A stretch of 64,000 bases of DNA from Dudresnaya verticillata (lineage: Eukaryota): the NCBI GenBank assembly GCA_977862235.1, contig OZ374565.1, forward strand, positions 2,542,001 to 2,606,000, in the 5' to 3' direction. Position 1 is the stretch's first letter; each line of letters opens with the position of its first letter. The translations under genes and the position numbers were made by a program. Below the pieces are notes generated by a model, which saw nothing but the letters and a program-made list of their open reading frames with translations, ran no database searches and had not been told where the DNA came from. This document shows, piece after piece, positions 5,373-61,703 of the stretch.

Positions 5373-5413
5373 AACCTTAAAAGTAAGCGCAAAATAGGAA
5401 ACGCGTGACCGTC

Positions 5414-11186: not shown

Positions 11187-11232
11187 AAGATAAGTCAGTG
11201 GGGCCCGGGCAAATTTCAAGGTGAGGGATCAC
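11187..11232 (+). promoter_or_regulatory. 5S internal-control-region mimic in the element 5' UTR (copy 2, consensus form)
   Basis: AAGATAAGTC-N22-AGGTGAGGGATCAC; 10/10 and 14/14 identity to the reconstructed host 5S gene at identical spacing. Confidence 0.65.
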
Positions 11233-16182: not shown

Positions 16183-16197
16183 TCAGTCTGAGGTGAG

Positions 16198-20837: not shown

Positions 20838-20863
20838 TGAGGGAGTACTCAGTCTGAGGTGAG

Positions 20864-20894
20864 GGATCACTCTGGAATCGCCAGTGCCGAATGT
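20864..20894 (+). rRNA. 5S rRNA: 5S rRNA gene 2, 3' segment (nt 90-120)
   Basis: GGATCACTCTGGAATCGCCAGTGCCGAATGT followed by oligo(T). Confidence 0.92.
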
Positions 20895-21983: not shown

Positions 21984-22072
21984 ACATTCGGCCATACTAC
22001 GCAGACATGCTCCGTATCCCATCCCGAACTGCGAAGATAAGTCTCGTCAGGCTGGTTTAGTACTGAGGTGAG
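21984..22072 (+). rRNA. 5S rRNA: 5S rRNA gene 3, 5' segment (nt 1-89), interrupted by seven stacked elements
   Basis: Same sequence as 912-1000. Confidence 0.93.
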
Positions 22073-25000
22073 TTCAACTTTATAACAGGTGACCATATTC
22101 TAATATTTGTCGACGTACAATCTACTGTAGTATCACAACAAAGTTAAACCCCAACTCAAAACAACCTGCACATCTACACCTCCTGTTGGATCCCTTCCAT
22201 CAGGCACTTGACGTTGTTCTGCACCAGTCGCGCCGCGTGCCTGTGGAACAGAGCCGCTCGCGAAACACCGCGAGTTACCATGGCCCGAGAAGCCACGGTA
22301 TCCGCCAACTCTTGCATATACTTGTGCGCCTCCGGGTGCCAGCCACCTAGTGTGGTCATCGGCACCGGCACAAGCCTTGCCCCCGGTCCGGCAGCCTGGA
22401 TGAAGCCACGATAAGTCCGCACCTTGTCAGCGTGGGCGTTCTTCAGCGTCCCTTGCGGGTTTGTTATGCAGCTGAGAATGCGTTGTTCTGACGACAGTGG
22501 ATGACTGATTGTGACGTCCAGGTAGTCCGTTCCTCCTTCTGTTCCAAGCGCCTTGATGTCCGGCCGATCCAAGTGAGCCCCCACAGGGCGGGGCTCCACA
22601 ATCGGGGTGCGTGTCGCACGTTTCAGATCCGAAGCCAGCAGACGAACCTGAGAGTCGTGGCGCCACGACCGAGGAGATCCGCTGTTCCGCATGCCGTTCG
22701 GACAAATCAGCAGATGGTCGCCGTGAACATCCATCATCTTCTTGCACCCGGCCCGAGGACACTCCGTGTCGGGTTCCAGCAGTGGAATCCGACAGTAGAA
22801 TCGAAGCCATACGCGGTAGTCCCGATCCGCAATGTACGTCTTCATGCCTGGTGCCGGCTGGCACTTGAGCCAGTCCTTGGCGCCCGGCACGCCAAGGGAA
22901 GCTCGGAAAGCTTGCGTCCGCCTGTCCCCGAGCGGCAGCTCGGCTTGCACTTTCTTCAGAACCAACCGCGTCAAGTCCCGCTGGCGCGGGCACTCGTCGC
23001 TGTCGATCTTCTCCAGGTCCAGGGCATCCTCACTATGGCACTTGGCGCTCCAGTCTTCGTGCGCTTCTACTGCAAAAGGATCGTCAGAAAGAGCAGTGTT
23101 CACAGAAGCGGGTAAGATAGAACGCAGTAAGTTGCGGGTCAGTGAAAGGGACGCCAAAAACGCGCTCGAGTTCATGTCGCCAGCTCCCGAAATACCGATT
23201 CCGAAGCTGGGCTCTTTCGTGCGCAGGGGAAGCTGAAGTTCGCGGAAGGTGTCCCTCGGTAGGACTCCTCCCACGAGCTTGCGCATGCAAGCCTCAATCT
23301 TCTGGTCGAAGAGCTCGGCGCCCTTTGCCGTGGCGGATGATGGAACTACTCGCAGCAGGTAGTTCAGCCGGCAGACTCCGGCACAGTTGCGGAGTAGAGT
23401 GATGGCCACGTGTAGGTCTTCTAGTCCCGAAATTGCGTCCAGCAGGGGCTGGATGGACTCGACATGGCCATTCACGCTCTCCTCCATGTAGTTCTGCGTT
23501 CCAATCGGAGCCTGAAGTACTGTAGTGCCTTCTCCGTAGCTCTGCCCAAGATCCGACGGGTAGGCAGCGCAGTCTTCTGGGTCGGGTGCAGTAGGCCACC
23601 AAACAGTACACTTGTCCATGCGCAGGTGGAAGCCATAGCCCTTAGCTTCCTCGGAGTCAAAGAAGGACAGAACCTTCCTGAGTACGGCGTGTTTCGCCAC
23701 GATGACGCCGTCGTCCAGGTAGAACAGTGACAGCAGCAAGTTGTTCGCCCCCTCCGCTTGCTGATTGCGGCCCGAGCGCCGCAGGTCGGCGGTGAGTTCC
23801 TTCAACTGTTTGATCAGTGCCTGCAGCACCAAAGCAAACAGTAACGGCCCGAGCGGGTCACCTTGCTGTACACCAGTGACACTCCGCAGTAGAGTGTCAC
23901 CCATCCACAGGTGCGGGCCCTCAGAGTCATAACAGTATCTGACCCACGGTAGTAGTTCAGGCATATGTCGGCGGACCTCCTTCATGAATGCTTTGCGGCT
24001 GACAAGGTTGAAGGCATTCTTCAAGTCCACTTGTAGCAACCCGTAGGACTTGTCATGGCCGTGAGACTTCTGCAGCTTCCGGACCGCGTGTACAATGGCT
24101 TCTGTGCCGCCCGAGGTTGCGACCCCGAGCTGAAGCGGTTCGAGGTATGCCTTGGCCTTGGGAGCGACTCTGGTCATGAGCATAGAGCTCACGAGTCGTC
24201 GGATTGTCTCTCCTACAGCAATGGGGCGGACACCGCCGGTGCGCTTCTTCAGAGCCGTGAGAGGAGCGCTGGCAATCCAAGGCGACAGCTCCGCAGGTCC
24301 TGCGCCGCTGGCCAGCACGTTGACCATTTTGGTGAGCCCGCCAAGCAGGCCCGTGTGCTCGTGAGTGGTCGGGACTGAGAGCAGTTCCTGCAGATGCGTC
24401 GGTGATAGTCCTGTTCCCCCCGAGGCCGAAGCCCGGGGGAACTTGGCCACTGCTTTTCGTACTTCGTCGGCTGTGAAAGGCACGAAGTCAGGCATGGTCG
24501 GCAGCGGTTCGGACTGGTCAAGCTCGTGGTCCGCGTCGGTTTGCGGTACGGACTGCGGGTGCTTGTCCTTCATGGACTGTATCACAGAGTCTGTGGCTGG
24601 GGCGATTCCATCAGAGTCTAGAGCTGCTGCTGCCTTACTGTAGGCGCCCTCCTTTGCAAGGCGAAGGGCTCGTGAGGCATTGATACGGCGTTGCTCTTCT
24701 GCGGAAGGCGCAGTCTGCTCACGGAATGTCGAGCCCTTCAAGGCCTCCTGCCATAGGGCGTCGTAATCCTTGAGTCCCCAGCGTCGGATTCGATCGCGGA
24801 AGGTGCCGATCGAGGACGCAGAGGTTGACGCGCTGGCCCTTGCACTCGCGGCGGGAGGATTGGACAAGACGGCTGCTGGAAAAAGCAGGAATGCAGTGAG
24901 CTCTTTGGTGGCTTCCTGAGAGTTGGTTGCGTTCGTAAAAGCCCATACCGTCTTGGACAGTGCGTCGCGCACCTCGGCGCGGACGCGAGACGGTATATGT

Positions 25001-26724
25001 GTGACCATAGGGATATGCGAGCGACAGATGTCTTCGACCGCCGGCAGAAGCTGCCCTCCTGGACCCCGCGCAACGGGTGGGGTTTGCGCAGTTGGTACCT
25101 CTCGAGTAGCAGGTACCGGTGCAGGAGGCGGCTCCTGGCTGTCCGGGATTCGTCGCGGGGCTGGCAGGATATCGTCCGCTGGCTCGCCGTCCTCGGGTTG
25201 CGTCTCCGTGACCGCGTCCAGAGCAGGAGACTGTGATGGCGCGGCTACAGTTTCTTCACGGCTCGGTGTCGTCAATTGGTTGGACGGGACGTGGGAGAAC
25301 GCCGGAGTGCGAGTAGCGGGACATGCGCTGCAATTCTTGTACCGCATACTGTACATGCCTTCACTGTTCATGCGGGAGCTACAGTGGGTGGGCATGTACT
25401 TGTTGTGAGTCACACAGTACCATACTCCATAGTCCAGGAGCTGCTGCTTGAGAGGCTCGATGTCGGTCCTCGTCGGTGGTCCTCGCCTGCCAGGAACATG
25501 CATCTTCCGCAGGTGCATGAGTAGCGCTTCTACAGTAGGCAGTGAGGACGACTGGCAGCCCAGAGGACAGCTGGTACTGTTTGTCGGGCGGTGTTTTGCC
25601 GAAGGCATAAAGCATGGAGAGAGCCATACCTTCGGCATGTCGGGGTGCTGCTGACCAATCATGGTTACAGCGCTGGGTAAGGTACCTGTAAAGGTCCTCT
25701 ACAGTAGGTTCCCACGGGGCACAGACCTCCTAACCGGGACGCAAGCCTGTCGTCCGTCGTCAGTCTGTTCGGGACACCTCCAGAGGGTGCTACAGGTGGC
25801 CTTGCTGCGAGATGAGGGCCTCTTCGCAGCGTAGGGCGCGAGATCGCGCACTTTGCGCACGAGCTCGCGCAAAAGGGCGCGCGTGTTAGCGTTCGTGCGC
25901 GCAGAGTTATCGGACGTTCCCTTCCCTGCCGCAGCTGAGAAGACTCTCTTCACTGCGGTCCTGTAACGCGCGGTACTTCTCGTTTGCACAAGCTCTCAAT
26001 GGGGTCGCAGAACCACCGTTTACCTGTGAGTGCCCACAGGATTTTTGGCCTCCCCCGAAGGTTCGCTGGCAGGACGTTCGCTCGATCTTAGAAGGGGTGG
26101 TTTCAAAACAGGATCCACCAGGCTTAAGCCACGTTACCCCAACTTCGACGTTGCTTGGCACGTTTCTGCGATGAGCTTGTGGGTCACGAGCCGCCTACCA
26201 CTCAAGGTCGAGGGTCTTTGGCGATTCCCACACTTGTAGGTCTCTCGGCACTTCCCGAAGGAAGATTTTACAGGACAAGCCTGGCCTTTACCAATCTGTC
26301 AGTTGAAGGGTGTGAAACCCCTCTGTCGACAGTCCACGGCAGCCTAGACAGAGTCTAGGCTGTGCCGGGTACAAGCAAAACGCGTACAGGGCCAGGGAAA
26401 GAAAGATAAGTCAGTGGGGCCCGGGCAAATTTCAAGGTGAGGGATCACCTTAAAAGTAAGCGCAAAATAGGAAACGCGTGACCGTCGGCGACGACGGCGG
26501 CGGCGACGGCGGCGACGACGACGGCGTCGCGGCGCAGATCGGCGGCGCGGAAAGAGACAAAAGTAGACCGCGCTCGCCCGCCCGCGAAGGTGAAGGGCTG
26601 AAAAACCCCGCACCGACGCGCCGTCGCGCGCTCGAACAGGCGGCACCGCCGCCGAAAAGATCGGTGCAGAACTTGCTGAGAAATCTCCGAAACAAAAAAT
26701 TCGGCAGATCGCGAGGGGTTCTCC
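22073..26724 (-). mobile_element. Retrotransposon copy 5 (full length)
   Basis: Precise 3' junction, intact ORF. Confidence 0.95.
22174..25662 (-). CDS. RT-RLE retrotransposon protein, 1162 aa (copy 5)
   Basis: Same motifs as copy 1. Confidence 0.95.
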   Translation of the reverse strand: MIGQQHPDMPKVWLSPCFMPSAKHRPTNSTSCPLGCQSSSLPTVEALLMHLRKMHVPGRRGPPTRTDIEPLKQQLLDYGVWYCVTHNKYMPTHCSSRMNSEGMYSMRYKNCSACPATRTPAFSHVPSNQLTTPSREETVAAPSQSPALDAVTETQPEDGEPADDILPAPRRIPDSQEPPPAPVPATREVPTAQTPPVARGPGGQLLPAVEDICRSHIPMVTHIPSRVRAEVRDALSKTVWAFTNATNSQEATKELTAFLLFPAAVLSNPPAASARASASTSASSIGTFRDRIRRWGLKDYDALWQEALKGSTFREQTAPSAEEQRRINASRALRLAKEGAYSKAAAALDSDGIAPATDSVIQSMKDKHPQSVPQTDADHELDQSEPLPTMPDFVPFTADEVRKAVAKFPRASASGGTGLSPTHLQELLSVPTTHEHTGLLGGLTKMVNVLASGAGPAELSPWIASAPLTALKKRTGGVRPIAVGETIRRLVSSMLMTRVAPKAKAYLEPLQLGVATSGGTEAIVHAVRKLQKSHGHDKSYGLLQVDLKNAFNLVSRKAFMKEVRRHMPELLPWVRYCYDSEGPHLWMGDTLLRSVTGVQQGDPLGPLLFALVLQALIKQLKELTADLRRSGRNQQAEGANNLLLSLFYLDDGVIVAKHAVLRKVLSFFDSEEAKGYGFHLRMDKCTVWWPTAPDPEDCAAYPSDLGQSYGEGTTVLQAPIGTQNYMEESVNGHVESIQPLLDAISGLEDLHVAITLLRNCAGVCRLNYLLRVVPSSATAKGAELFDQKIEACMRKLVGGVLPRDTFRELQLPLRTKEPSFGIGISGAGDMNSSAFLASLSLTRNLLRSILPASVNTALSDDPFAVEAHEDWSAKCHSEDALDLEKIDSDECPRQRDLTRLVLKKVQAELPLGDRRTQAFRASLGVPGAKDWLKCQPAPGMKTYIADRDYRVWLRFYCRIPLLEPDTECPRAGCKKMMDVHGDHLLICPNGMRNSGSPRSWRHDSQVRLLASDLKRATRTPIVEPRPVGAHLDRPDIKALGTEGGTDYLDVTISHPLSSEQRILSCITNPQGTLKNAHADKVRTYRGFIQAAGPGARLVPVPMTTLGGWHPEAHKYMQELADTVASRAMVTRGVSRAALFHRHAARLVQNNVKCLMEGIQQEV

Positions 26725-26756
26725 GGGTACTGAGGTGAGGACTGAGGTCAGGTGAG

Positions 26757-29700
26757 TTCAACTTTATAACAGGTGACCATATTCTAATATTTGTCGACGT
26801 ACAATCTACTGTAGTATCACAACAAAGTTAAACCCCAACTCAAAACAACCTGCACATCTACACCTCCTGTTGGATCCCTTCCATCAGGCACTTGACGTTG
26901 TTCTGCACCAGTCGCGCCGCGTGCCTGTGGAACAGAGCCGCTCGCGAAACACCGCGAGTTACCATGGCCCGAGAAGCCACGGTATCCGCCAACTCTTGCA
27001 TATACTTGTGCGCCTCCGGGTGCCAGCCACCTAGTGTGGTCATCGGCACCGGCACAAGCCTTGCCCCCGGTCCGGCAGCCTGGATGAAGCCACGGTAAGT
27101 CCGCACCTTGTCAGCGTGGGCGTTCTTCAGCGTCCCTTGCGGGTTTGTTATGCAGCTGAGAATGCGTTGTTCTGACGACAGTGGATGACTGATTGTGACG
27201 TCCAGGTAGTCCGTTCCTCCTTCTGTTCCAAGCGCCTTGATGTCCGGCCGATCCAAGTGAGCCCCCACAGGGCGGGGCTCCACAATCGGGGTGCGTGTCG
27301 CACGTTTCAGATCCGAAGCCAGCAGACGAACCTGAGAGTCGTGGCGCCACGACCGAGGAGATCCGCTGTTCCGCATGCCGTTCGGACAAATCAGCAGATG
27401 GTCGCCGTGAACATCCATCATCTTCTTGCACCCGGCCCGAGGACACTCCGTGTCGGGTTCCAGCAGTGGAATCCGACAGTAGAATCGAAGCCATACGCGG
27501 TAGTCCCGATCCGCAATGTACGTCTTCATGCCTGGTGCCGGCTGGCACTTGAGCCAGTCCTTGGCGCCCGGCACGCCAAGGGAAGCTCGGAAAGCTTGCG
27601 TCCGCCTGTCCCCGAGCGGCAGCTCGGCTTGCACTTTCTTCAGAACCAACCGCGTCAAGTCCCGCTGGCGCGGGCACTCGTCGCTGTCGATCTTCTTCAG
27701 GTCCAGGGCATCCTCACTATGGCACTTGGCGCTCCAGTCTTCGTGCGCTTCTACTGCAAAAGGATCGTCAGAAAGAGCAGTGTTCACAGAAGCGGGTAAG
27801 ATAGAACGCAGTAAGTTGCGGGTCAGTGAAAGGGACGCCAAAAACGCGCTCGAGTTCATGTCGCCAGCTCCCGAAATACCGATTCCGAAGCTGGGCTCTT
27901 TCGTGCGCAGGGGAAGCTGAAGTTCGCGGAAGGTGTCCCTCGGTAGGACTCCTCCCACGAGCTTGCGCATGCAAGCCTCAATCTTCTGGTCGAAGAGCTC
28001 GGCGCCCTTTGCCGTGGCGGATGATGGAACTACTCGCAGCAGGTAGTTCAGCCGGCAGACTCCGGCACAGTTGCGGAGTAGAGTGATGGCCACGTGTAGG
28101 TCTTCTAGTCCCGAAATTGCGTCCAGCAGGGGCTGGATGGACTCGACATGGCCATTCACGCTCTCCTCCATGTAGTTCTGCGTTCCAATCGGAGCCTGAA
28201 GTACTGTAGTGCCTTCTCCGTAGCTCTGCCCAAGATCCGACGGGTAGGCAGCGCAGTCTTCTGGGTCGGGTGCAGTAGGCCACCAAACAGTACACTTGTC
28301 CATGCGCAGGTGGAAGCCATAGCCCTTAGCTTCCTCGGAGTCAAAGAAGGACAGAACCTTCCTGAGTACGGCGTGTTTCGCCACGATGACGCCGTCGTCC
28401 AGGTAGAACAGTGACAGCAGCAAGTTGTTCGCCCCCTCCGCTTGCTGATTGCGGCCCGAGCGCCGCAGGTCGGCGGTGAGTTCCTTCAACTGTTTGATCA
28501 GTGCCTGCAGCACCAAAGCAAACAGTAACGGCCCGAGCGGGTCACCTTGCTGTACACCAGTGACACTCCGCAGTAGAGTGTCACCCATCCACAGGTGCGG
28601 GCCCTCAGAGTCATAACAGTATCTGACCCACGGTAGTAGTTCAGGCATATGTCGGCGGACCTCCTTCATGAATGCTTTGCGGCTGACAAGGTTGAAGGCA
28701 TTCTTCAAGTCCACTTGTAGCAACCCGTAGGACTTGTCATGGCCGTGAGACTTCTGCAGCTTCCGGACCGCGTGTACAATGGCTTCTGTGCCGCCCGAGG
28801 TTGCGACCCCGAGCTGAAGCGGTTCGAGGTATGCCTTGGCCTTGGGAGCGACTCTGGTCATGAGCATAGAGCTCACGAGTCGTCGGATTGTCTCTCCTAC
28901 AGCAATGGGGCGGACACCGCCGGTGCGCTTCTTCAGAGCCGTGAGAGGAGCGCTGGCAATCCAAGGCGACAGCTCCGCAGGTCCTGCGCCGCTGGCCAGC
29001 ACGTTGACCATTTTGGTGAGCCCGCCAAGCAGGCCCGTGTGCTCGTGAGTGGTCGGGACTGAGAGCAGTTCCTGCAGATGCGTCGGTGATAGTCCTGTTC
29101 CCCCCGAGGCCGAAGCCCGGGGGAACTTGGCCACTGCTTTTCGTACTTCGTCGGCTGTGAAAGGCACGAAGTCAGGCATGGTCGGCAGCGGTTCGGACTG
29201 GTCAAGCTCGTGGTCCGCGTCGGTTTGCGGTACGGACTGCGGGTGCTTGTCCTTCATGGACTGTATCACAGAGTCTGTGGCTGGGGCGATTCCATCAGAG
29301 TCTAGAGCTGCTGCTGCCTTACTGTAGGCGCCCTCCTTTGCAAGGCGAAGGGCTCGTGAGGCATTGATACGGCGTTGCTCTTCTGCGGAAGGCGCAGTCT
29401 GCTCACGGAATGTCGAGCCCTTCAAGGCCTCCTGCCATAGGGCGTCGTAATCCTTGAGTCCCCAGCGTCGGATTCGATCGCGGAAGGTGCCGATCGAGGA
29501 CGCAGAGGTTGACGCGCTGGCCCTTGCACTCGCGGCGGGAGGATTGGACAAGACGGCTGCTGGAAAAAGCAGGAATGCAGTGAGCTCTTTGGTGGCTTCC
29601 TGAGAGTTGGTTGCGTTCGTAAAAGCCCATACCGTCTTGGACAGTGCGTCGCGCACCTCGGCGCGGACGCGAGACGGTATATGTGTGACCATAGGGATAT

Positions 29701-31408
29701 GCGAGCGACAGATGTCTTCGACCGCCGGCAGAAGCTGCCCTCCTGGACCCCGCGCAACGGGTGGGGTTTGCGCAGTTGGTACCTCTCGAGTAGCAGGTAC
29801 CGGTGCAGGAGGCGGCTCCTGGCTGTCCGGGATTCGTCGCGGGGCTGGCAGGATATCGTCCGCTGGCTCGCCGTCCTCGGGTTGCGTCTCCGTGACCGCG
29901 TCCAGAGCAGGAGACTGTGATGGCGCGGCTACAGTTTCTTCACGGCTCGGTGTCGTCAATTGGTTGGACGGGACGTGGGAGAACGCCGGAGTGCGAGTAG
30001 CGGGACATGCGCTGCAATTCTTGTACCGCATACTGTACATGCCTTCACTGTTCATGCGGGAGCTACAGTGGGTGGGCATGTACTTGTTGTGAGTCACACA
30101 GTACCATACTCCATAGTCCAGGAGCTGCTGCTTGAGAGGCTCGATGTCGGTCCTCGTCGGTGGTCCTCGCCTGCCAGGAACATGCATCTTCCGCAGGTGC
30201 ATGAGTAGCGCTTCTACAGTAGGCAGTGAGGACGACTGGCAGCCCAGAGGACAGCTGGTACTGTTTGTCGGGCGGTGTTTTGCCGAAGGCATAAAGCATG
30301 GAGAGAGCCATACCTTCGGCATGTCGGGGTGCTGCTGACCAATCATGGTTACAGCGCTGGGTAAGGTACCTGTAAAGGTCCTCTACAGTAGGTTCCCACG
30401 GGGCACAGACCTCCTAACCGGGACGCAAGCCTGTCGTCCGTCGTCAGTCTGTTCGGGACACCTCCAGAGGGTGCTACAGGTGGCCTTGCTGCGAGATGAG
30501 GGCCTCTTCGCAGCGTAGGGCGCGAGATCGCGCACTTTGCGCACGAGCTCGCGCAAAAGGGCGCGCGTGTTAGCGTTCGTGCGCGCAGAGTTATCGGACG
30601 TTCCCTTCCCTGCCGCAGCTGAGAAGACTCTCTTCACTGCGGTCCTGTAACGCGCGGTACTTCTCGTTTGCACAAGCTCTCAATGGGGTCGCAGAACCAC
30701 CGTTTACCTGTGAGTGCCCACAGGATTTTTGGCCTCCCCCGAAGGTTCGCTGGCAGGACGTTCGCTCGATCTTAGAAGGGGTGGTTTCAAAACAGGATCC
30801 ACCAGGCTTAAGCCACGTTACCCCAACTTCGACGTTGCTTGGCACGTTTCTGCGATGAGCTTGTGGGTCACGAGCCGCCTACCACTCAAGGTCGAGGGTC
30901 TTTGGCGATTCCCACACTTGTAGGTCTCTCGGCACTTCCCGAAGGAAGATTTTACAGGACAAGCCTGGCCTTTACCAATCTGTCAGTTGAAGGGTGTGAA
31001 ACCCCTCTGTCGACAGTCCACGGCAGCCTAGACAGAGTCTAGGCTGTGCCGGGTACAAGCAAAACGCGTACAGGGCCAGGGAAAGAAAGATAAGTCAGTG
31101 GGGCCCGGGCAAATTTCAAGGTGAGGGATCACCTTAAAAGTAAGCGCAAAATAGGAAACGCGTGACCGTCGGCGACGACGGCGGCGGCGACGGCGGCGAC
31201 GACGACGGCGTCGCGGCGCAGATCGGCGGCGCGGAAAGAGACAAAAGTAGACCGCGCTCGCCCGCCCGCGAAGGTGAAGGGCTGAAAAACCCCGCACCGA
31301 CGCGCCGTCGCGCGCTCGAACAGGCGGCACCGCCGCCGAAAAGATCGGTGCAGAACTTGCTGAGAAATCTCCGAAACAAAAAATTCGGCAGATCGCGAGG
31401 GGTTCTCC
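26757..31408 (-). mobile_element. Retrotransposon copy 6 (full length)
   Basis: Precise 3' junction, intact ORF. Confidence 0.95.
26858..30346 (-). CDS. RT-RLE retrotransposon protein, 1162 aa (copy 6)
   Basis: Same motifs; private LDLKKID variant. Confidence 0.95.
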   Translation of the reverse strand: MIGQQHPDMPKVWLSPCFMPSAKHRPTNSTSCPLGCQSSSLPTVEALLMHLRKMHVPGRRGPPTRTDIEPLKQQLLDYGVWYCVTHNKYMPTHCSSRMNSEGMYSMRYKNCSACPATRTPAFSHVPSNQLTTPSREETVAAPSQSPALDAVTETQPEDGEPADDILPAPRRIPDSQEPPPAPVPATREVPTAQTPPVARGPGGQLLPAVEDICRSHIPMVTHIPSRVRAEVRDALSKTVWAFTNATNSQEATKELTAFLLFPAAVLSNPPAASARASASTSASSIGTFRDRIRRWGLKDYDALWQEALKGSTFREQTAPSAEEQRRINASRALRLAKEGAYSKAAAALDSDGIAPATDSVIQSMKDKHPQSVPQTDADHELDQSEPLPTMPDFVPFTADEVRKAVAKFPRASASGGTGLSPTHLQELLSVPTTHEHTGLLGGLTKMVNVLASGAGPAELSPWIASAPLTALKKRTGGVRPIAVGETIRRLVSSMLMTRVAPKAKAYLEPLQLGVATSGGTEAIVHAVRKLQKSHGHDKSYGLLQVDLKNAFNLVSRKAFMKEVRRHMPELLPWVRYCYDSEGPHLWMGDTLLRSVTGVQQGDPLGPLLFALVLQALIKQLKELTADLRRSGRNQQAEGANNLLLSLFYLDDGVIVAKHAVLRKVLSFFDSEEAKGYGFHLRMDKCTVWWPTAPDPEDCAAYPSDLGQSYGEGTTVLQAPIGTQNYMEESVNGHVESIQPLLDAISGLEDLHVAITLLRNCAGVCRLNYLLRVVPSSATAKGAELFDQKIEACMRKLVGGVLPRDTFRELQLPLRTKEPSFGIGISGAGDMNSSAFLASLSLTRNLLRSILPASVNTALSDDPFAVEAHEDWSAKCHSEDALDLKKIDSDECPRQRDLTRLVLKKVQAELPLGDRRTQAFRASLGVPGAKDWLKCQPAPGMKTYIADRDYRVWLRFYCRIPLLEPDTECPRAGCKKMMDVHGDHLLICPNGMRNSGSPRSWRHDSQVRLLASDLKRATRTPIVEPRPVGAHLDRPDIKALGTEGGTDYLDVTISHPLSSEQRILSCITNPQGTLKNAHADKVRTYRGFIQAAGPGARLVPVPMTTLGGWHPEAHKYMQELADTVASRAMVTRGVSRAALFHRHAARLVQNNVKCLMEGIQQEV

Positions 31409-31440
31409 GGGTACTGAGGTGAGGACTGAGGTCAGGTGAG

Positions 31441-36080: not shown

Positions 36081-36096
36081 TGAGTACTGAGGTGAG

Positions 36097-40735: not shown

Positions 40736-40755
40736 GTACTGAGTACTGAGGTGAG

Positions 40756-43700: not shown

Positions 43701-45406
43701 CGAGCGACAGATGTCTTCGACCGCCGGCAGAAGCTGCCCTCCTGGACCCCGCGCAACGGGTGGGGTTTGCGCAGTTGGTACCTCTCGAGTAGCAGGTACC
43801 GGTGCAGGAGGCGGCTCCTGGCTGTCCGGGATTCGTCGCGGGGCTGGCAGGATATCGTCCGCTGGCTCGCCGTCCTCGGGTTGCGTCTCCGTGACCGCGT
43901 CCAGAGCAGGAGACTGTGATGGCGCGGCTACAGTTTCTTCACGGCTCGGTGTCGTCAATTGGTTGGACGGGACGTGGGAGAACGCCGGAGTGCGAGTAGC
44001 GGGACATGCGCTGCAATTCTTGTACCGCATACTGTACATGCCTTCACTGTTCATGCGGGAGCTACAGTGGGTGGGCATGTACTTGTTGTGAGTCACACAG
44101 TACCATACTCCATAGTCCAGGAGCTGCTGCTTGAGAGGCTCGATGTCGGTCCTCGTCGGTGGTCCTCGCCTGCCAGGAACATGCATCTTCCGCAGGTGCA
44201 TGAGTAGCGCTTCTACAGTAGGCAGTGAGGACGACTGGCAGCCCAGAGGACAGCTGGTACTGTTTGTCGGGCGGTGTTTTGCCGAAGGCATAAAGCATGG
44301 AGAGAGCCATACCTTCGGCATGTCGGGGTGCTGCTGACCAATCATGGTTACAGCGCTGGGTAAGGTACCTGTAAAGGTCCTCTACAGTAGGTTCCCACGG
44401 GGCACAGACCTCCTAACCGGGACGCAAGCCTGTCGTCCGTCGTCAGTCTGTTCGGGACACCTCCAGAGGGTGCTACAGGTGGCCTTGCTGCGAGATGAGG
44501 GCCTCTTCGCAGCGTAGGGCGCGAGATCGCGCACTTTGCGCACGAGCTCGCGCAAAAGGGCGCGCGTGTTAGCGTTCGTGCGCGCAGAGTTATCGGACGT
44601 TCCCTTCCCTGCCGCAGCTGAGAAGACTCTCTTCACTGCGGTCCTGTAACGCGCGGTACTTCTCGTTTGCACAAGCTCTCAATGGGGTCGCAGAACCACC
44701 GTTTACCTGTGAGTGCCCACAGGATTTTTGGCCTCCCCCGAAGGTTCGCTGGCAGGACGTTCGCTCGATCTTAGAAGGGGTGGTTTCAAAACAGGATCCA
44801 CCAGGCTTAAGCCACGTTACCCCAACTTCGACGTTGCTTGGCACGTTTCTGCGATGAGCTTGTGGGTCACGAGCCGCCTACCACTCAAGGTCGAGGGTCT
44901 TTGGCGATTCCCACACTTGTAGGTCTCTCGGCACTTCCCGAAGGAAGATTTTACAGGACAAGCCTGGCCTTTACCAATCTGTCAGTTGAAGGGTGTGAAA
45001 CCCCTCTGTCGACAGTCCACGGCAGCCTAGACAGAGTCTAGGCTGTGCCGGGTACAAGCAAAACGCGTACAGGGCCAGGGAAAGAAAGATAAGTCAGTGG
45101 GGCCCGGGCAAATTTCAAGGTGAGGGATCACCTTAAAAGTAAGCGCAAAATAGGAAACGCGTGACCGTCGGCGACGACGGCGGCGGCGACGGCGGCGACG
45201 ACGACGGCGTCGCGGCGCAGATCGGCGGCGCGGAAAGAGACAAAAGTAGACCGCGCTCGCCCGCCCGCGAAGGTGAAGGGCTGAAAAACCCCGCACCGAC
45301 GCGCCGTCGCGCGCTCGAACAGGCGGCACCGCCGCCGAAAAGATCGGTGCAGAACTTGCTGAGAAATCTCCGAAACAAAAAATTCGGCAGATCGCGAGGG
45401 GTTCTC
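40756..45406 (-). mobile_element. Retrotransposon copy 9 (full length)
   Basis: Precise 3' junction, intact ORF. Confidence 0.95.
40857..44345 (-). CDS. RT-RLE retrotransposon protein, 1162 aa (copy 9)
   Basis: Same motifs as copy 1. Confidence 0.95.
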   Translation of the reverse strand: MIGQQHPDMPKVWLSPCFMPSAKHRPTNSTSCPLGCQSSSLPTVEALLMHLRKMHVPGRRGPPTRTDIEPLKQQLLDYGVWYCVTHNKYMPTHCSSRMNSEGMYSMRYKNCSACPATRTPAFSHVPSNQLTTPSREETVAAPSQSPALDAVTETQPEDGEPADDILPAPRRIPDSQEPPPAPVPATREVPTAQTPPVARGPGGQLLPAVEDICRSHIPMVTHIPSRVRAEVRDALSKTVWAFTNATNSQEATKELTAFLLFPAAVLSNPPAASARASASTSASSIGTFRDRIRRWGLKDYDALWQEALKGSTFREQTAPSAEEQRRINASRALRLAKEGAYSKAAAALDSDGIAPATDSVIQSMKDKHPQSVPQTDADHELDQSEPLPTMPDFVPFTADEVRKAVAKFPRASASGGTGLSPTHLQELLSVPTTHEHTGLLGGLTKMVNVLASGAGPAELSPWIASAPLTALKKRTGGVRPIAVGETIRRLVSSMLMTRVAPKAKAYLEPLQLGVATSGGTEAIVHAVRKLQKSHGHDKSYGLLQVDLKNAFNLVSRKAFMKEVRRHMPELLPWVRYCYDSEGPHLWMGDTLLRSVTGVQQGDPLGPLLFALVLQALIKQLKELTADLRRSGRNQQAEGANNLLLSLFYLDDGVIVAKHAVLRKVLSFFDSEEAKGYGFHLRMDKCTVWWPTAPDPEDCAAYPSDLGQSYGEGTTVLQAPIGTQNYMEESVNGHVESIQPLLDAISGLEDLHVAITLLRNCAGVCRLNYLLRVVPSSATAKGAELFDQKIEACMRKLVGGVLPRDTFRELQLPLRTKEPSFGIGISGAGDMNSSAFLASLSLTRNLLRSILPASVNTALSDDPFAVEAHEDWSAKCHSEDALDLEKIDSDECPRQRDLTRLVLKKVQAELPLGDRRTQAFRASLGVPGAKDWLKCQPAPGMKTYIADRDYRVWLRFYCRIPLLEPDTECPRAGCKKMMDVHGDHLLICPNGMRNSGSPRSWRHDSQVRLLASDLKRATRTPIVEPRPVGAHLDRPDIKALGTEGGTDYLDVTISHPLSSEQRILSCITNPQGTLKNAHADKVRTYRGFIQAAGPGARLVPVPMTTLGGWHPEAHKYMQELADTVASRAMVTRGVSRAALFHRHAARLVQNNVKCLMEGIQQEV

Positions 45407-45420
45407 AGTACTGAGGTGAG

Positions 45421-48400
45421 TTCAACTTTATAACAGGTGACCATATTCTAATATTTGTCGACGTACAATCTACTGTAGTATCACAACAAAGTTAAACCCC
45501 AACTCAAAACAACCTGCACATCTACACCTCCTGTTGGATCCCTTCCATCAGGCACTTGACGTTGTTCTGCACCAGTCGCGCCGCGTGCCTGTGGAACAGA
45601 GCCGCTCGCGAAACACCGCGAGTTACCATGGCCCGAGAAGCCACGGTATCCGCCAACTCTTGCATATACTTGTGCGCCTCCGGGTGCCAGCCACCTAGTG
45701 TGGTCATCGGCACCGGCACAAGCCTTGCCCCCGGTCCGGCAGCCTGGATGAAGCCACGGTAAGTCCGCACCTTGTCAGCGTGGGCGTTCTTCAGCGTCCC
45801 TTGCGGGTTTGTTATGCAGCTGAGAATGCGTTGTTCTGACGACAGTGGATGACTGATTGTGACGTCCAGGTAGTCCGTTCCTCCTTCTGTTCCAAGCGCC
45901 TTGATGTCCGGCCGATCCAAGTGAGCCCCCACAGGGCGGGGCTCCACAATCGGGGTGCGTGTCGCACGTTTCAGATCCGAAGCCAGCAGACGAACCTGAG
46001 AGTCGTGGCGCCACGACCGAGGAGATCCGCTGTTCCGCATGCCGTTCGGACAAATCAGCAGATGGTCGCCGTGAACATCCATCATCTTCTTGCACCCGGC
46101 CCGAGGACACTCCGTGTCGGGTTCCAGCAGTGGAATCCGACAGTAGAATCGAAGCCATACGCGGTAGTCCCGATCCGCAATGTACGTCTTCATGCCTGGT
46201 GCCGGCTGGCACTTGAGCCAGTCCTTGGCGCCCGGCACGCCAAGGGAAGCTCGGAAAGCTTGCGTCCGCCTGTCCCCGAGCGGCAGCTCGGCTTGCACTT
46301 TCTTCAGTACCAACCGCGTCAAGTCCCGCTGGCGCGGGCACTCGTCGCTGTCGATCTTCTCCAGGTCCAGGGCATCCTCACTATGGCACTTGGCGCTCCA
46401 GTCTTCGTGCGCTTCTACTGCAAAAGGATCGTCAGAAAGAGCAGTGTTCACAGAAGCGGGTAAGATAGAACGCAGTAAGTTGCGGGTCAGTGAAAGGGAC
46501 GCCAAAAACGCGCTCGAGTTCATGTCGCCAGCTCCCGAAATACCGATTCCGAAGCTGGGCTCTTTCGTGCGCAGGGGAAGCTGAAGTTCGCGGAAGGTGT
46601 CCCTCGGTAGGACTCCTCCCACGAGCTTGCGCATGCAAGCCTCAATCTTCTGGTCGAAGAGCTCGGCGCCCTTTGCCGTGGCGGATGATGGAACTACTCG
46701 CAGCAGGTAGTTCAGCCGGCAGACTCCGGCACAGTTGCGGAGTAGAGTGATGGCCACGTGTAGGTCTTCTAGTCCCGAAATTGCGTCCAGCAGGGGCTGG
46801 ATGGACTCGACATGGCCATTCACGCTCTCCTCCATGTAGTTCTGCGTTCCAATCGGAGCCTGAAGTACTGTAGTGCCTTCTCCGTAGCTCTGCCCAAGAT
46901 CCGACGGGTAGGCAGCGCAGTCTTCTGGGTCGGGTGCAGTAGGCCACCAAACAGTACACTTGTCCATTCGCAGGTGGAAGCCATAGCCCTTAGCTTCCTC
47001 GGAGTCAAAGAAGGACAGAACCTTCCTGAGTACGGCGTGTTTCGCCACGATGACGCCGTCGTCCAGGTAGAACAGTGACAGCAGCAAGTTGTTCGCCCCC
47101 TCCGCTTGCTGATTGCGGCCCGAGCGCCGCAGGTCGGCGGTGAGTTCCTTCAACTGTTTGATCAGTGCCTGCAGCACCAAAGCAAACAGTAACGGCCCGA
47201 GCGGGTCACCTTGCTGTACACCAGTGACACTCCGCAGTAGAGTGTCACCCATCCACAGGTGCGGGCCCTCAGAGTCATAACAGTATCTGACCCACGGTAG
47301 TAGTTCAGGCATATGTCGGCGGACCTCCTTCATGAATGCTTTGCGGCTGACAAGGTTGAAGGCATTCTTCAAGTCCACTTGTAGCAACCCGTAGGACTTG
47401 TCATGGCCGTGAGACTTCTGCAGCTTCCGGACCGCGTGTACAATGGCTTCTGTGCCGCCCGAGGTTGCGACCCCGAGCTGAAGCGGTTCGAGGTATGCCT
47501 TGGCCTTGGGAGCGACTCTGGTCATGAGCATAGAGCTCACGAGTCGTCGGATTGTCTCTCCTACAGCAATGGGGCGGACACCGCCGGTGCGCTTCTTCAG
47601 AGCCGTGAGAGGAGCGCTGGCAATCCAAGGCGACAGCTCCGCAGGTCCTGCGCCGCTGGCCAGCACGTTGACCATTTTGGTGAGCCCGCCAAGCAGGCCC
47701 GTGTGCTCGTGAGTGGTCGGGACTGAGAGCAGTTCCTGCAGATGGGTCGGTGATAGTCCTGTTCCCCCCGAGGCCGAAGCCCGGGGGAACTTGGCCACTG
47801 CTTTTCGTACTTCGTCGGCTGTGAAAGGCACGAAGTCAGGCATGGTCGGCAGCGGTTCGGACTGGTCAAGCTCGTGGTCCGCGTCGGTTTGCGGTACGGA
47901 CTGCGGGTGCTTGTCCTTCATGGACTGTATCACAGAGTCTGTGGCTGGGGCGATTCCATCAGAGTCTAGAGCTGCTGCTGCCTTACTGTAGGCGCCCTCC
48001 TTTGCAAGGCGAAGGGCTCGTGAGGCATTGATACGGCGTTGCTCTTCTGCGGAAGGCGCAGTCTGCTCACGGAATGTCGAGCCCTTCAAGGCCTCCTGCC
48101 ATAGGGCGTCGTAATCCTTGAGTCCCCAGCGTCGGATTCGATCGCGGAAGGTGCCGATCGAGGACGCAGAGGTTGACGCGCTGGCCCTTGCACTCGCGGC
48201 GGGAGGATTGGACAAGACGGCTGCTGGAAAAAGCAGGAATGCAGTGAGCTCTTTGGTGGCTTCCTGAGAGTTGGTTGCGTTCGTAAAAGCCCATACCGTC
48301 TTGGACAGTGCGTCGCGCACCTCGGCGCGGACGCGAGACGGTATATGTGTGACCATAGGGATATGCGAGCGACAGATGTCTTCGACCGCCGGCAGAAGCT

Positions 48401-50060
48401 GCCCTCCTGGACCCCGCGCAACGGGTGGGGTTTGCGCAGTTGGTACCTCTCGAGTAGCAGGTACCGGTGCAGGAGGCGGCTCCTGGCTGTCCGGGATTCG
48501 TCGCGGGGCTGGCAGGATATCGTCCGCTGGCTCGCCGTCCTCGGGTTGCGTCTCCGTGACCGCGTCCAGAGCAGGAGACTGTGATGGCGCGGCTACAGTT
48601 TCTTCACGGCTCGGTGTCGTCAATTGGTTGGACGGGACGTGGGAGAACGCCGGAGTGCGAGTAGCGGGACATGCGCTGCAATTCTTGTACCGCATACTGT
48701 ACATGCCTTCACTGTTCATGCGGGAGCTACAGTGGGTGGGCATGTACTTGTTGTGAGTCACATAGTACCATACTCCATAGTCCAGGAGCTGCTGCTTGAG
48801 AGGCTCGATGTCGGTCCTCGTCGGTGGTCCTCGCCTGCCAGGAACATGCATCTTCCGCAGGTGCATGAGTAGCGCTTCTACAGTAGGCAGTGAGGACGAC
48901 TGGCAGCCCAGAGGACAGCTGGTACTGTTTGTCGGGCGGTGTTTTGCCGAAGGCATAAAGCATGGAGAGAGCCATACCTTCGGCATGTCGGGGTGCTGCT
49001 GACCAATCATGGTTACAGCGCTGGGTAAGGTACCTGTAAAGGTCCTCTACAGTAGGTTCCCACGGGGCACAGGCCTCCTAACCGGGACGCAAGCCTGTCG
49101 TCCGTCGTCAGTCTGTTCGGGACACCTCCAGAGGGTGCTACAGGTGGCCTTGCTGCGAGATGAGGGCCTCTTCGCAGCGTAGGGCGCGAGATCGCGCACT
49201 TTGCGCACGAGCTCGCGCAAAAGGGCGCGCGTGTTAGCGTTCGTGCGCGCAGAGTTATCGGACGTTCCCTTCCCTGCCGCAGCTGAGAAGACTCTCTTCA
49301 CTGCGGTCCTGTAACGCGCGGTACTTCTCGTTTGCACAAGCTCTCAATGGGGTCGCAGAACCACCGTTTACCTGTGAGTGCCCACAGGATTTTTGGCCTC
49401 CCCCGAAGGTTCGCTGGCAGGACGTTCGCTCGATCTTAGAAGGGGTGGTTTCAAAACAGGATCCACCAGGCTTAAGCCACGTTACCCCAACTTCGACGTT
49501 GCTTGGCACGTTTCTGCGATGAGCTTGTGGGTCACGAGCCGCCTACCACTCAAGGTCGAGGGTCTTTGGCGATTCCCACACTTGTAGGTCTCTCGGCACT
49601 TCCCGAAGGAAGATTTTACAGGACAAGCCTGGCCTTTACCAATCTGTCAGTTGAAGGGTGTGAAACCCCTCTGTCGACAGTCCACGGCAGCCTAGACAGA
49701 GTCTAGGCTGTGCCGGGTACAAGCAAAACGCGTACAGGGCCAGGGAAAGAAAGATAAGTCAGTGGGGCCCGGGCAAATTTCAAGGTGAGGGATCACCTTA
49801 AAAGTAAGCGCAAAATAGGAAACGCGTGACCGTCGGCGACGACGGCGGCGGCGACGGCGGCGACGACGACGGCGTCGCGGCGCAGATCGGCGGCGCGGAA
49901 AGAGACAAAAGTAGACCGCGCTCGCCCGCCCGCGAAGGTGAAGGGCTGAAAAACCCCGCACCGACGCGCCGTCGCGCGCTCGAACAGGCGGCACCGCCGC
50001 CGAAAAGATCGGTGCAGAACTTGTTGAGATATCCGCGAAACAAAAATTTCGGCAGATCGC
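45421..50060 (-). mobile_element. Retrotransposon copy 10 (full length)
   Basis: Clean junction GCAGATCG-CTGAGGTGAG-TTCAAC to copy 11. Confidence 0.95.
45522..49010 (-). CDS. RT-RLE retrotransposon protein, 1162 aa (copy 10)
   Basis: Same motifs; WYCVTH changed to WYYVTH in the second Cys/His cluster. Confidence 0.95.
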   Translation of the reverse strand: MIGQQHPDMPKVWLSPCFMPSAKHRPTNSTSCPLGCQSSSLPTVEALLMHLRKMHVPGRRGPPTRTDIEPLKQQLLDYGVWYYVTHNKYMPTHCSSRMNSEGMYSMRYKNCSACPATRTPAFSHVPSNQLTTPSREETVAAPSQSPALDAVTETQPEDGEPADDILPAPRRIPDSQEPPPAPVPATREVPTAQTPPVARGPGGQLLPAVEDICRSHIPMVTHIPSRVRAEVRDALSKTVWAFTNATNSQEATKELTAFLLFPAAVLSNPPAASARASASTSASSIGTFRDRIRRWGLKDYDALWQEALKGSTFREQTAPSAEEQRRINASRALRLAKEGAYSKAAAALDSDGIAPATDSVIQSMKDKHPQSVPQTDADHELDQSEPLPTMPDFVPFTADEVRKAVAKFPRASASGGTGLSPTHLQELLSVPTTHEHTGLLGGLTKMVNVLASGAGPAELSPWIASAPLTALKKRTGGVRPIAVGETIRRLVSSMLMTRVAPKAKAYLEPLQLGVATSGGTEAIVHAVRKLQKSHGHDKSYGLLQVDLKNAFNLVSRKAFMKEVRRHMPELLPWVRYCYDSEGPHLWMGDTLLRSVTGVQQGDPLGPLLFALVLQALIKQLKELTADLRRSGRNQQAEGANNLLLSLFYLDDGVIVAKHAVLRKVLSFFDSEEAKGYGFHLRMDKCTVWWPTAPDPEDCAAYPSDLGQSYGEGTTVLQAPIGTQNYMEESVNGHVESIQPLLDAISGLEDLHVAITLLRNCAGVCRLNYLLRVVPSSATAKGAELFDQKIEACMRKLVGGVLPRDTFRELQLPLRTKEPSFGIGISGAGDMNSSAFLASLSLTRNLLRSILPASVNTALSDDPFAVEAHEDWSAKCHSEDALDLEKIDSDECPRQRDLTRLVLKKVQAELPLGDRRTQAFRASLGVPGAKDWLKCQPAPGMKTYIADRDYRVWLRFYCRIPLLEPDTECPRAGCKKMMDVHGDHLLICPNGMRNSGSPRSWRHDSQVRLLASDLKRATRTPIVEPRPVGAHLDRPDIKALGTEGGTDYLDVTISHPLSSEQRILSCITNPQGTLKNAHADKVRTYRGFIQAAGPGARLVPVPMTTLGGWHPEAHKYMQELADTVASRAMVTRGVSRAALFHRHAARLVQNNVKCLMEGIQQEV

Positions 50061-50069
50061 TGAGGTGAG

Positions 50070-52395
50070 TTCAACTTTATAACAGGTGACCATATTCTAA
50101 TATTTGTCGACGTACAATCTACTGTAGTATCACAACAAAGTTAAACCCCAACTCAAAACAACCTGCACATCTACACCTCCTGTTGGATCCCTTCCATCAG
50201 GCACTTGACGTTGTTCTGCACCAGTCGCGCCGCGTGCCTGTGGAACAGAGCCGCTCGCGAAACACCGCGAGTTACCATGGCCCGAGAAGCCACGGTATCC
50301 GCCAACTCTTGCATATACTTGTGCGCCTCCGGGTGCCAGCCACCTAGTGTGGTCATCGGCACCGGCACAAGCCTTGCCCCCGGTCCGGCAGCCTGGATGA
50401 AGCCACGGTAAGTCCGCACCTTGTCAGCGTGGGCGTTCTTCAGCGTCCCTTGCGGGTTTGTTATGCAGCTGAGAATGCGTTGTTCTGACGACAGTGGATG
50501 ACTGATTGTGACGTCCAGGTAGTCCGTTCCTCCTTCTGTTCCAAGCGCCTTGATGTCCGGCCGATCCAAGTGAGCCCCCACAGGGCGGGGCTCCACAATC
50601 GGGGTGCGTGTCGCACGTTTCAGATCCGAAGCCAGCAGACGAACCTGAGAGTCGTGGCGCCACGACCGAGGAGATCCGCTGTTCCGCATGCCGTTCGGAC
50701 AAATCAGCAGATGGTCGCCGTGAACATCCATCATCTTCTTGCACCCGGCCCGAGGACACTCCGTGTCGGGTTCCAGCAGTGGAATCCGACAGTAGAATCG
50801 AAGCCATACGCGGTAGTCCCGATCCGCAATGTACGTCTTCATGCCTGGTGCCGGCTGGCACTTGAGCCAGTCCTTGGCGCCCGGCACGCCAAGGGAAGCT
50901 CGGAAAGCTTGCGTCCGCCTGTCCCCGAGCGGCAGCTCGGCTTGCACTTTCTTCAGAACCAACCGCGTCAAGTCCCGCTGGCGCGGGCACTCGTCGCTGT
51001 CGATCTTCTCCAGGTCCAGGGCATCCTCACTATGGCACTTGGCGCTCCAGTCTTCGTGCGCTTCTACTGCAAAAGGATCGTCAGAAAGAGCAGTGTTCAC
51101 AGAAGCGGGTAAGATAGAACGCAGTAAGTTGCGGGTCAGTGAAAGGGACGCCAAAAACGCGCTCGAGTTCATGTCGCCAGCTCCCGAAATACCGATTCCG
51201 AAGCTGGGCTCTTTCGTGCGCAGGGGAAGCTGAAGTTCGCGGAAGGTGTCCCTCGGTAGGACTCCTCCCACGAGCTTGCGCATGCAAGCCTCAATCTTCT
51301 GGTCGAAGAGCTCGGCGCCCTTTGCCGTGGCGGATGATGGAACTACTCGCAGCAGGTAGTTCAGCCGGCAGACTCCGGCACAGTTGCGGAGTAGAGTGAT
51401 GGCCACGTGTAGGTCTTCTAGTCCCGAAATTGCGTCCAGCAGGGGCTGGATGGACTCGACATGGCCATTCACGCTCTCCTCCATGTAGTTCTGCGTTCCA
51501 ATCGGAGCCTGAAGTACTGTAGTGCCTTCTCCGTAGCTCTGCCCAAGATCCGACGGGTAGGCAGCGCAGTCTTCTGGGTCGGGTGCAGTAGGCCACCAAA
51601 CAGTACACTTGTCCATTCGCAGGTGGAAGCCATAGCCCTTAGCTTCCTCGGAGTCAAAGAAGGACAGAACCTTCCTGAGTACGGCGTGTTTCGCCACGAT
51701 GACGCCGTCGTCCAGGTAGAACAGTGACAGCAGCAAGTTGTTCGCCCCCTCCGCTTGCTGATTGCGGCCCGGGCGCCGCAGGTCGGCGGTGAGTTCCTTC
51801 AACTGTTTGATCAGTGCCTGCAGCACCAAAGCAAACAGTAACGGCCCGAGCGGGTCACCTTGCTGTACACCAGTGACACTCCGCAGTAGAGTGTCACCCA
51901 TCCACAGGTGCGGGCCCTCAGAGTCATAACAGTATCTGACCCACGGTAGTAGTTCAGGCATATGTCGGCGGACCTCCTTCATGAATGCTTTGCGGCTGAC
52001 AAGGTTGAAGGCATTCTTCAAGTCCACTTGTAGCAACCCGTAGGACTTGTCATGGCCGTGAGACTTCTGCAGCTTCCGGACCGCGTGTACAATGGCTTCT
52101 GTGCCGCCCGAGGTTGCGACCCCGAGCTGAAGCGGTTCGAGGTATGCCTTGGCCTTGGGATCGACTCTGGTCATGAGCATAGAGCTCACGAGTCGTCGGA
52201 TTGTCTCTCCTACAGCAATGGGGCGGACACCGCCGGTGCGCTTCTTCAGAGCCGTGAGAGGAGCGCTGGCAATCCAAGGCGACAGCTCCGCAGGTCCTGC
52301 GCCGCTGGCCAGCACGTTGACCATTTTGGTGAGCCCGCCAAGCAGGCCCGTGTGCTCGTGAGTGGTCGGGACTGAGAGCAGTTCCTGCAGATCGC
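50070..52395 (-). mobile_element. Retrotransposon copy 11, lacking its 5' half
   Basis: Element sequence stops at …TTCCTGCAGAT and continues CG-CTGAGGTGAG-GGATCAC (5S 3' segment). Confidence 0.93.
50171..52392 (-). pseudogene. 5'-truncated RT-RLE ORF (no zinc finger or native start)
   Basis: Matches the full protein from LQELLSVP onward; the ORF-track N-terminus is antisense 5S/spacer sequence. Confidence 0.9.
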
Positions 52396-52404
52396 TGAGG
52401 TGAG

Positions 52405-52435
52405 GGATCACTCTGGAATCGCCAGTGCCGAATGT
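52405..52435 (+). rRNA. 5S rRNA: 5S rRNA gene 3, 3' segment (nt 90-120)
   Basis: GGATCACTCTGGAATCGCCAGTGCCGAATGT + oligo(T), preceded by the 10-bp duplication CTGAGGTGAG. Confidence 0.92.
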
Positions 52436-53524: not shown

Positions 53525-53613
53525 ACATTCGGCCATACTACGCAGACATGCTCCGTATCCCATCCCGAACTGCGAAGATAAGTCTCGTCAGGCTGGTTTA
53601 GTACTGAGGTGAG
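53525..53613 (+). rRNA. 5S rRNA: 5S rRNA gene 4, 5' segment (nt 1-89); 3' segment deleted
   Basis: Same sequence as 912-1000; no 3' segment after copy 13. Confidence 0.92.
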
Positions 53614-56895: not shown

Positions 56896-56908
56896 GTACT
56901 GAGGTGAG

Positions 56909-61614: not shown

Positions 61615-61703
61615 ACATTCGGCCATACTACGCAGACATGCTCCGTATCCCATCCCGAACTGCGAAGATAAGTCTCGTCAGGCTGGTTTAGTACTGAGGT
61701 GAG
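61615..61703 (+). rRNA. 5S rRNA: 5S rRNA gene 5, 5' segment (nt 1-89), interrupted
   Basis: Same sequence as 912-1000. Confidence 0.93.

Follow-up and report, generated by a model that had tools for sequence, protein, structure and literature searches.

Site-specific RLE retrotransposons are now mined as a source of gene insertion tools, and a survey of RLE elements, CRE included, is attributed to Fell et al. 2025 (both from excerpts of PMC13580325). Utopia elements are NeSL-related RLE elements that reside in U2 snRNA genes. Disrupted U2 genes outnumber intact ones, and in Nasonia vitripennis tandem insertion is evident at 20 of 94 Utopia 3' junctions, which abut another Utopia copy (PMC4640811, in the sections drawn on here). 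Variable 5' junctions with target remnants are described for both Utopia and R2 (section 6 of the same paper), and the RLE elements that it lists as targeting tRNA genes include NeSL-1_TV, LIN15 and LIN25.

Ribosomal 5S genes serve as targets for other mobile elements. Mutsu is a 5S-specific zebrafish LINE of ~5.5 kb with two ORFs, a poly(A) end and L1 names in Repbase, and it inserts ~20 nt from the 5S 5' end (excerpts of PMC5340908). Dada DNA transposons also target 5S (excerpts of PMC8869645). In addition, the non-autonomous elements Ajax, Cassandra and SINE3 carry 5S-derived promoters that are thought to be used for synthesis of their own RNA (excerpts of PMC10886601).

The 64-kb stretch of DNA analysed here (the window) is a 5S rDNA array with five Rfam 5S matches, and self-comparison reveals a repeat of ~4.66 kb that fills most of it. 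All five genes are broken after nt 89, between AGGTGAG and GGATCAC in box C, and the 3' end of an element directly abuts each 5' half (Table 1). Fourteen element copies account for 57,926 of the 64,000 bases. The initial annotation had assigned 1, 3, 7, 2 and at least 1 copies to genes 1 to 5, and the same grouping is recovered from the 14 copies. As it had also proposed, gene 3 holds seven elements head-to-tail, six of them full-length (4639 bp) and the last, 3g, reduced to 2325 bp, and its two halves are ~30 kb apart. Its further statements that internal junctions end in AGGTGAG and that most of them differ agree with our count of nine in nine for the motif and eight distinct strings among the nine, the 3a/3b and 3b/3c junctions being the same. 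Finally, no uninterrupted 5S core is found within the 64-kb window, in line with its claim that intact genes are absent.

Table 1. Coordinates of 5S gene parts, element copies and junctions in the window.
Feature	Coordinates	Strand	Details
5S gene 1 with one element	912..5678	+	element 1001-5638, haplotype H1
5S gene 2 with three elements	6768..20894	+	elements 6857-11495 (H2), 11544-16181 (H1), 16198-20836 (H2)
5S intergenic spacer	20895..21983	.	1089 bp
Gene 3, 5' half	21984..22072	+	nt 1-89, ends AGGTGAG
Element 3a	22073..26711	-	full-length, 4639 bp; 3' end abuts 5S nt 89 without poly(A)
Single element ORF, P0001 (copy 3a)	22174..25662	-	1162 aa
5S internal-promoter look-alike (copy 3a)	26403..26448	+	antisense to ORF
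Junction 3a/3b	26712..26756	+	45 nt, composite target remnants, same as 3b/3c
Element 3b	26757..31395	-	full-length
Junction 3b/3c	31396..31440	+	45 nt
Element 3c	31441..36079	-	full-length
Junction 3c/3d	36080..36096	+	17 nt, of which 14 match 5S
Element 3d	36097..40735	-	full-length
Junction 3d/3e	40736..40755	+	20 nt, of which 17 are in common with the junction on its left
Element 3e	40756..45394	-	full-length
Junction 3e/3f	45395..45420	+	26 nt
Element 3f	45421..50059	-	full-length
Junction 3f/3g	50060..50069	+	10 nt
Element 3g	50070..52394	-	3' 2325 bp only; break at GCAGAT microhomology
Gene 3, terminal target remnant	52395..52404	+	
Gene 3, 3' half	52405..52435	+	nt 90-120, then T-rich terminator
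5S gene 4 with two elements	53525..60549	+	elements 53614-56888 (4a) and 56909-60549 (4b)
5S gene 5, 5' half and element 5a	61615..64000	+	element cut by window end

The element 3' junction is constant in 14 of 14 copies. At the other side of the insertions, genes 1-3 retain the 5S 3' half, gene 4 has lost it by deletion, and that of gene 5 lies past the window end. The terminal remnant and 3' half of gene 3 rebuild CTGAGGTGAG followed directly by GGATCACTC, and the right junction of gene 1 carries no AGGTGAG remnant. In gene 4, element 4a is internally deleted, and 4b has lost its 5' end together with the 5S 3' half at a TTCC microhomology. Both are mosaics (53614-60549) with blocks of many private substitutions in the 5' part of 4a and the 3' 1.2 kb of 4b, pointing to further haplotypes elsewhere in the genome. 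The 5S spacers show zero substitutions in 10 of 10 pairwise comparisons; the one at 20895-21983 has a strong + strand G skew, telomere-like TTAGGG-type words and GGAT repeats. On biological grounds, functional 5S genes would have to lie outside the window; the array as a whole can hardly be characterized from five genes. The 5S sequence suggests that the host may be a florideophyte red alga.

Rfam places its five 5S calls at 912-1029, 6768-6885, 21984-22101, 53525-53642 and 61615-61732, each starting at the first base of a 5' half (nt 1-89). These calls exceed the gathering score and span model positions 1-120. They were nonetheless rejected as intact genes, being 5' halves that run on into the element, and they score as full models because element sequence fills positions 90-120. 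Automatic annotation would therefore deem such arrays intact. Rescue of the 5S by the element 3' end was also considered and rejected, as the Rfam alignment has many broken terminal-helix pairs. A deep intact 5S in contigs from one read run differs at 8 of 52 nt and in its 3' half; it was taken to be that of another organism and set aside.

The element is 4638-4639 bp long, has no LTRs and lies on the minus strand, opposite to 5S. Its insertions have a precise 3' junction, a variable 5' junction and a target duplication. The ORF is free of stop codons in 11 of 11 full-length cases; of the remaining three copies, 3g is truncated, 4a has an internal deletion and 5a runs off the window. Its product, P0001, contains a C2H2 finger at residues 32-55, an RT at residues 472-688 (Pfam RVT_1, E 1.2e-16) and, from residue 968, a CCHC and RHD-E-RPD-D endonuclease with the motif C-x4-C-x9-H-x3-C-x13-RHD-x19-E-x9-RPD-D. 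The order of the RLE residues is unchanged in 10 of 10 close relatives (alignment A1). Among PDB sequences the best matches are R2 and next L1 ORF2. An AlphaFold model from a 64-sequence alignment has a mean pLDDT of 86.4, and its top seven Foldseek matches are all R2 chains (E 6e-23 to 4e-20). Because of its RT, its CCHC and RHD/E/RPD/D residues and its R2-like predicted fold, the element is an RLE-type non-LTR retrotransposon. It resembles R2 in being an rDNA-specific RLE element and finds its closest solved structures there by sequence and fold, but R2 resides in a different gene (28S rDNA), and P0001 matches the R2 structures at 15-17% identity with a TM-score of ~0.5.

Full-length copies are 99-99.9% identical and differ pairwise by 1-44 substitutions, with no two the same; the element is young. 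It may be called CRE-like on the strength of its architecture and of RT motifs that presumably resemble those of CRE. Members of the CRE clade (CRE1/2, SLACS and CZAR, with MoTeR, FoTeR and Cnl1) share with it a single ORF encoding an N-terminal zinc finger, an RT and a CCHC and RHD-E-RPD-D endonuclease, as well as variable target duplication and a fixed position in a repeated small-RNA gene (excerpts of PMC12278014 and PMC12857005). The single ORF with one or two zinc-finger-like motifs that characterizes the clade is present, and the size of the element is near that of FoTeR (4.3-7.3 kb, with an ORF of ~3.5 kb; same excerpts). The strict SLACS/CRE spacing printed in the excerpt of PMC12857005 occurs in 0 of 10 proteins, all 10 of which have the residues in the order given there for SLACS/CRE and MoTeR, with wider zinc-knuckle spacings that fall just outside the printed pattern. 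Unlike the CRE clade, the element targets 5S box C and not spliced-leader genes or telomeres, and unlike the trypanosomatid members, which occupy spliced-leader genes, it has no 3' poly(A).

Utopia provides a close parallel as an RLE element in a small-RNA gene with precise 3' junctions, variable 5' junctions and tandem insertion. However, Utopia has the same orientation as U2, its 3' end being followed by U2 from nt 39, whereas the element described here is antisense to 5S (PMC4640811, in the sections cited above). Mutsu, another non-LTR retrotransposon, likewise has tandemly arrayed 5S genes as its specific target, but our element differs from it by having one ORF with an RLE and by inserting backwards between nt 89 and 90 (excerpts of PMC5340908). 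Stack depth alone is not new, because stacking and an excess of disrupted genes have been published for Utopia (PMC4640811, same sections); the seven-deep stack is a strong example of known behaviour. An antisense RLE element in 5S box C was not found in the literature searched, and Repbase or the tables of Fell et al. 2025 may list such a target. The array probably represents a new target and orientation for site-specific RLE retrotransposons, and it supplies 11 intact copies as well as a precisely delimited site.

We favor a model, with a probability of roughly 75%, in which an RLE element inserted after 5S nt 89 stacks through a target duplication that rebuilds a cuttable right-hand site. 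The nick and reverse-transcription scheme of this model comes from R2 biochemistry. By analogy and from the geometry of the insertions, the element protein would nick the 5S sense strand after AGGTGAG, and element RNA would be reverse-transcribed from the nicked 3' end. The second strand would then be cut or joined a variable distance upstream, leaving a target remnant, such that each insertion would duplicate 7-18 bases of target. This duplication would recreate, where the last copy meets the 3' half of the gene, a site that can be cut again. Such rebuilding of the landing site by each insertion would probably account for the stacking. As judged from the junctions, most new copies would enter at the right-hand site, unequal exchange would have duplicated at least one unit (3a/3b), and microhomology deletions would trim the stack (4a, 4b and possibly 3g).

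Element 5' junctions are 10-48 nt mixes of target remnants, and a single insertion leaves two candidate sites. The left site consists of 5S nt 1-89 and the element, and the right site consists of the remnant and 5S nt 90-120. Eight stacked copies that have both a readable right junction and a left neighbor were scored. Three of them repeat the junction of the left neighbor beyond its match to pristine 5S, with 16 versus 10 nt for 2c, 17 versus 14 nt for 3d and 18 versus 10 nt for 3g, whose repeat is of the end of 3f. These copies reproduce non-5S letters of their neighbors, as is expected if right-hand entry duplicates the letters present there. The extra letters of 2c are also present in one of the two 5'-end types of the element (see below), the extra 3 nt of 3d may be stutter, and 3g, which has a private SNP in common with 3f, may be a partly deleted duplicate of it. 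Two copies (3e and 3f) are neutral between models, and 3b is a whole-unit duplicate of 3a. The other two, 2b and 3c, match pristine 5S beyond the junction of the left neighbor (10 versus 7 nt and 14 versus 7 nt). They do not fit simple right-hand insertion beside their present neighbors and need either later changes or left-hand insertion. Both neighbors end in long composite junctions that may have been altered later.

Gene 2 supplies the strongest single clue for right-hand re-insertion. Its three right junctions (11515, 16185 and 20851) all carry AGTCTGAGGTGAG, which is pristine AGTACTGAGGTGAG minus one A and occurs nowhere else in the window, and the 5' half of the gene is pristine. The copies alternate H2-H1-H2, and the two haplotypes are 41-42 substitutions apart. 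A private remnant shared across haplotypes is most simply read as the product of successive right-hand insertions, an interpretation that is suggestive and short of proof. The initial annotation had held that the duplication regenerates a usable site and that unequal exchange contributed some of the expansion. The former idea is supported by the repeats in 2c, 3d and 3g and by the gene 2 variant that crosses haplotypes, and the latter is consistent with the 3a/3b pair.

Stacks might instead have grown mainly by unequal crossing-over and gene conversion with little re-insertion, which we consider improbable. The 3a/3b pair fits unequal exchange: its 45-nt junctions are the same, 3743 flanking bases agree throughout and the two copies differ by 2 substitutions. 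Differences among the six full-length copies in gene 3 amount to only 1-7 substitutions, and neighbors share SNPs in a chain that could reflect exchange, conversion or polishing cross-talk no less than separate insertions. The identical spacers also indicate strong homogenisation. However, exchange copies junctions unchanged, and yet eight of the nine strings are distinct. Moreover, the gene 2 copies hold one private remnant in common despite the divergence of their haplotypes, and even the first two-copy stack still requires a second insertion. Deletions with 3-6 nt of microhomology are found in 4a, 4b and perhaps 3g; therefore, stacks also erode.

It is very unlikely that errors of assembly or polishing created part of the seven-copy stack. 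High identity among the copies and the near duplication of 3a and 3b could favor such errors, and one read run, which covers 8% of the words in the window at a depth of ~2-3, gave no joints across junctions. However, distinct junctions, interleaved haplotypes and copy-specific deletions are unlike the results of collapse or duplication errors, and at most 3a/3b is suspect as a duplication error. A wholesale assembly artefact is unlikely given the eight distinct junctions among nine, the interleaving of haplotypes and the lack of identical full-length copies. Under the favored model of repeated right-hand insertion, the junction series offers a natural record of the target side that the protein reads and of how far the second cut wanders.

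Protein searches recover 62 relatives, nine of them at 35-56% identity; the nearest are P0002, P0003 and P0006, at 51-56%. In an RT tree of 93 rows that includes no named CRE members, the element falls in a 25-row group with an SH-aLRT value of 100, computed without bootstrap. Eight loci within this group were fetched, and both element ends are visible in three of them (L007, L014 and L009). Decayed relatives lie antisense to the 5' end of a tRNA-Arg in L007 (3829-8800) and of a tRNA-Ala in L014 (5694-10260), in both cases attached after about tRNA nt 8-9. The L014 duplication of ~32 bp restores the tRNA. In L007, duplication of tRNA nt 1-8 together with ~205 bp at ~73% identity restores the tRNA, and the ~205 bp are either left over from an old stacked copy or part of a long duplication. 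Near the L009 element there is neither a tRNA nor 5S, and no duplication is seen. Two of the three informative relatives, a small sample, therefore share the geometry of our element at another Pol III gene. A family with tRNA- and 5S-targeting members would provide a test of how specificity shifts among Pol III genes.

Searches of 85 of 85 loci with blastn and nhmmer gave no 5S beside the relatives except for four short matches at E 0.63, and Rfam on 20 of the 85 loci and ARAGORN on 50 of the 85 yielded two tRNAs only. Some relatives have additional features. L007 and L014 have a coding-like stretch in common upstream of the RT ORF (71% over 65 nt), and L014 carries a second, partial element of the same family (11460-12223) 1.2 kb downstream of the first. 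The relative P0005 has an extra N-terminal domain with a match to Pfam PF02902, which we take to be a Ulp1-type protease, and the upstream region of L009 (6700-7450) appears by eye to be similar to this domain.

The element also carries a look-alike of the 5S internal promoter. About 260-310 bp inside its 5' end, AAGATAAGTC (26403-26412 in copy 3a) and AGGTGAGGGATCAC (26435-26448) are separated by 22 nt, the same spacing as in 5S nt 51-60 and 83-96, which we take to be box A and box C in 5S numbering. Identity to the host 5S is 10/10 in box A and 14/14 in box C. The block is found in 11 of 11 copies that have the region, and both boxes are exact in nine. Together, two exact runs that share a diagonal total 24 matched bases, compared with a best of 18 (mean 13.7) among 1000 shuffles, a statistic that was chosen after the match was seen. 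A count over the 46-nt window is weaker, being reached by 6 of 1000 shuffles, and the 14-mer by itself is unremarkable (41 of 500 shuffles). The flanks and gap match 5S at chance level (9/50, 6/22 and 6/24). The second block forms part of a hairpin, and no 5S-like fold is seen for the UTR block. We put at about even odds that the 5S transcription factors of the host, TFIIIA and TFIIIC, would bind the block.

It is less probable that the block is a decoy for the element's own protein, an uncut copy of a bipartite target through which the element regulates itself. Bipartite target recognition is known for R2 and adds to the case for a decoy, as do the position of the second block, which spans the insertion point exactly (-7 to +7, with the first block at -39 to -30), and the lack of insertions in the block in 11 of 11 copies. 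However, the blocks coincide with box A and box C, and the intermediate-element GG matches too. Ajax and SINE3 have kept the same box pattern in their 5S-derived promoters (PMC10886601, section 3.7). Furthermore, the predicted start lies near the position equivalent to 26353, and on the + strand of the last-in-stack copies 1a and 2c the first T4 run past it is the 5S terminator itself, at a distance of 398 and 416 nt, respectively. For an internal copy the corresponding distance to the first T4 run is 2.66 kb.

That the block arose by chance, or persists without function from a 5S capture long ago, is about as unlikely as a decoy. Such an origin would suit the lack of significance of the 14-mer, the post hoc choice of statistic and the substitutions that 2 of 11 copies carry in a box, and the block is partly self-determined because it lies in a hairpin. 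Against this, none of the 1000 shuffles exceeds a diagonal run sum of 18, and chance-level flanks and gap are the pattern expected if only the boxes were kept. Searches for a tRNA-box mimic in L007 or L014 gave nothing convincing.

The block resembles the promoters of Ajax, Cassandra and SINE3, in which only box A, the intermediate element and box C are left of the 5S stretch and the 5S fold is absent (excerpts of PMC10886601). It differs from them in belonging to an autonomous RLE element, in facing away from the ORF and in reproducing sequence of the gene into which that element inserts. The literature searched showed no antisense 5S promoter block in any autonomous element. Tentatively, a CRE-like lineage specialized on Pol III genes may have moved from harmless sites at tRNA 5' ends to 5S box C, its 5S-targeting member bearing a functional copy of the promoter that it disrupts. 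This copy would recruit TFIIIA and yield an antisense Pol III RNA of ~400 nt. Such an RNA would cross the element's own 5' end into the host gene terminator, and the block would then be a self-regulating or chromatin-opening device in an autonomous retrotransposon. The target, the orientation, the tRNA-adjacent relatives and the promoter look-alike are points for specialist follow-up.

Other characteristics of the element 5' region can be described. A search with Rfam for a ribozyme at the element 5' end gave one weak, unrelated match, and no hammerhead core was found in the element copies. An HDV-like descriptor, run with no control, gave one minus-strand and three plus-strand loose matches per copy, none of them at the 5' end. 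The last 35 bp on the 5' side (for example, 26675-26722 versus 20800-20850) exist as two linked types. Where the two types differ, the changes leave a small element-strand hairpin intact, and the terminal letters of both look like a degenerate version of the target. The 1-kb 5' UTR (25663-26711) has a high GC content, strong hairpins and a short repeat, GACGGCGGC. Its T4+ runs number nine on the element strand against three on the + strand, where the stretch to the right of the promoter-like block has none.
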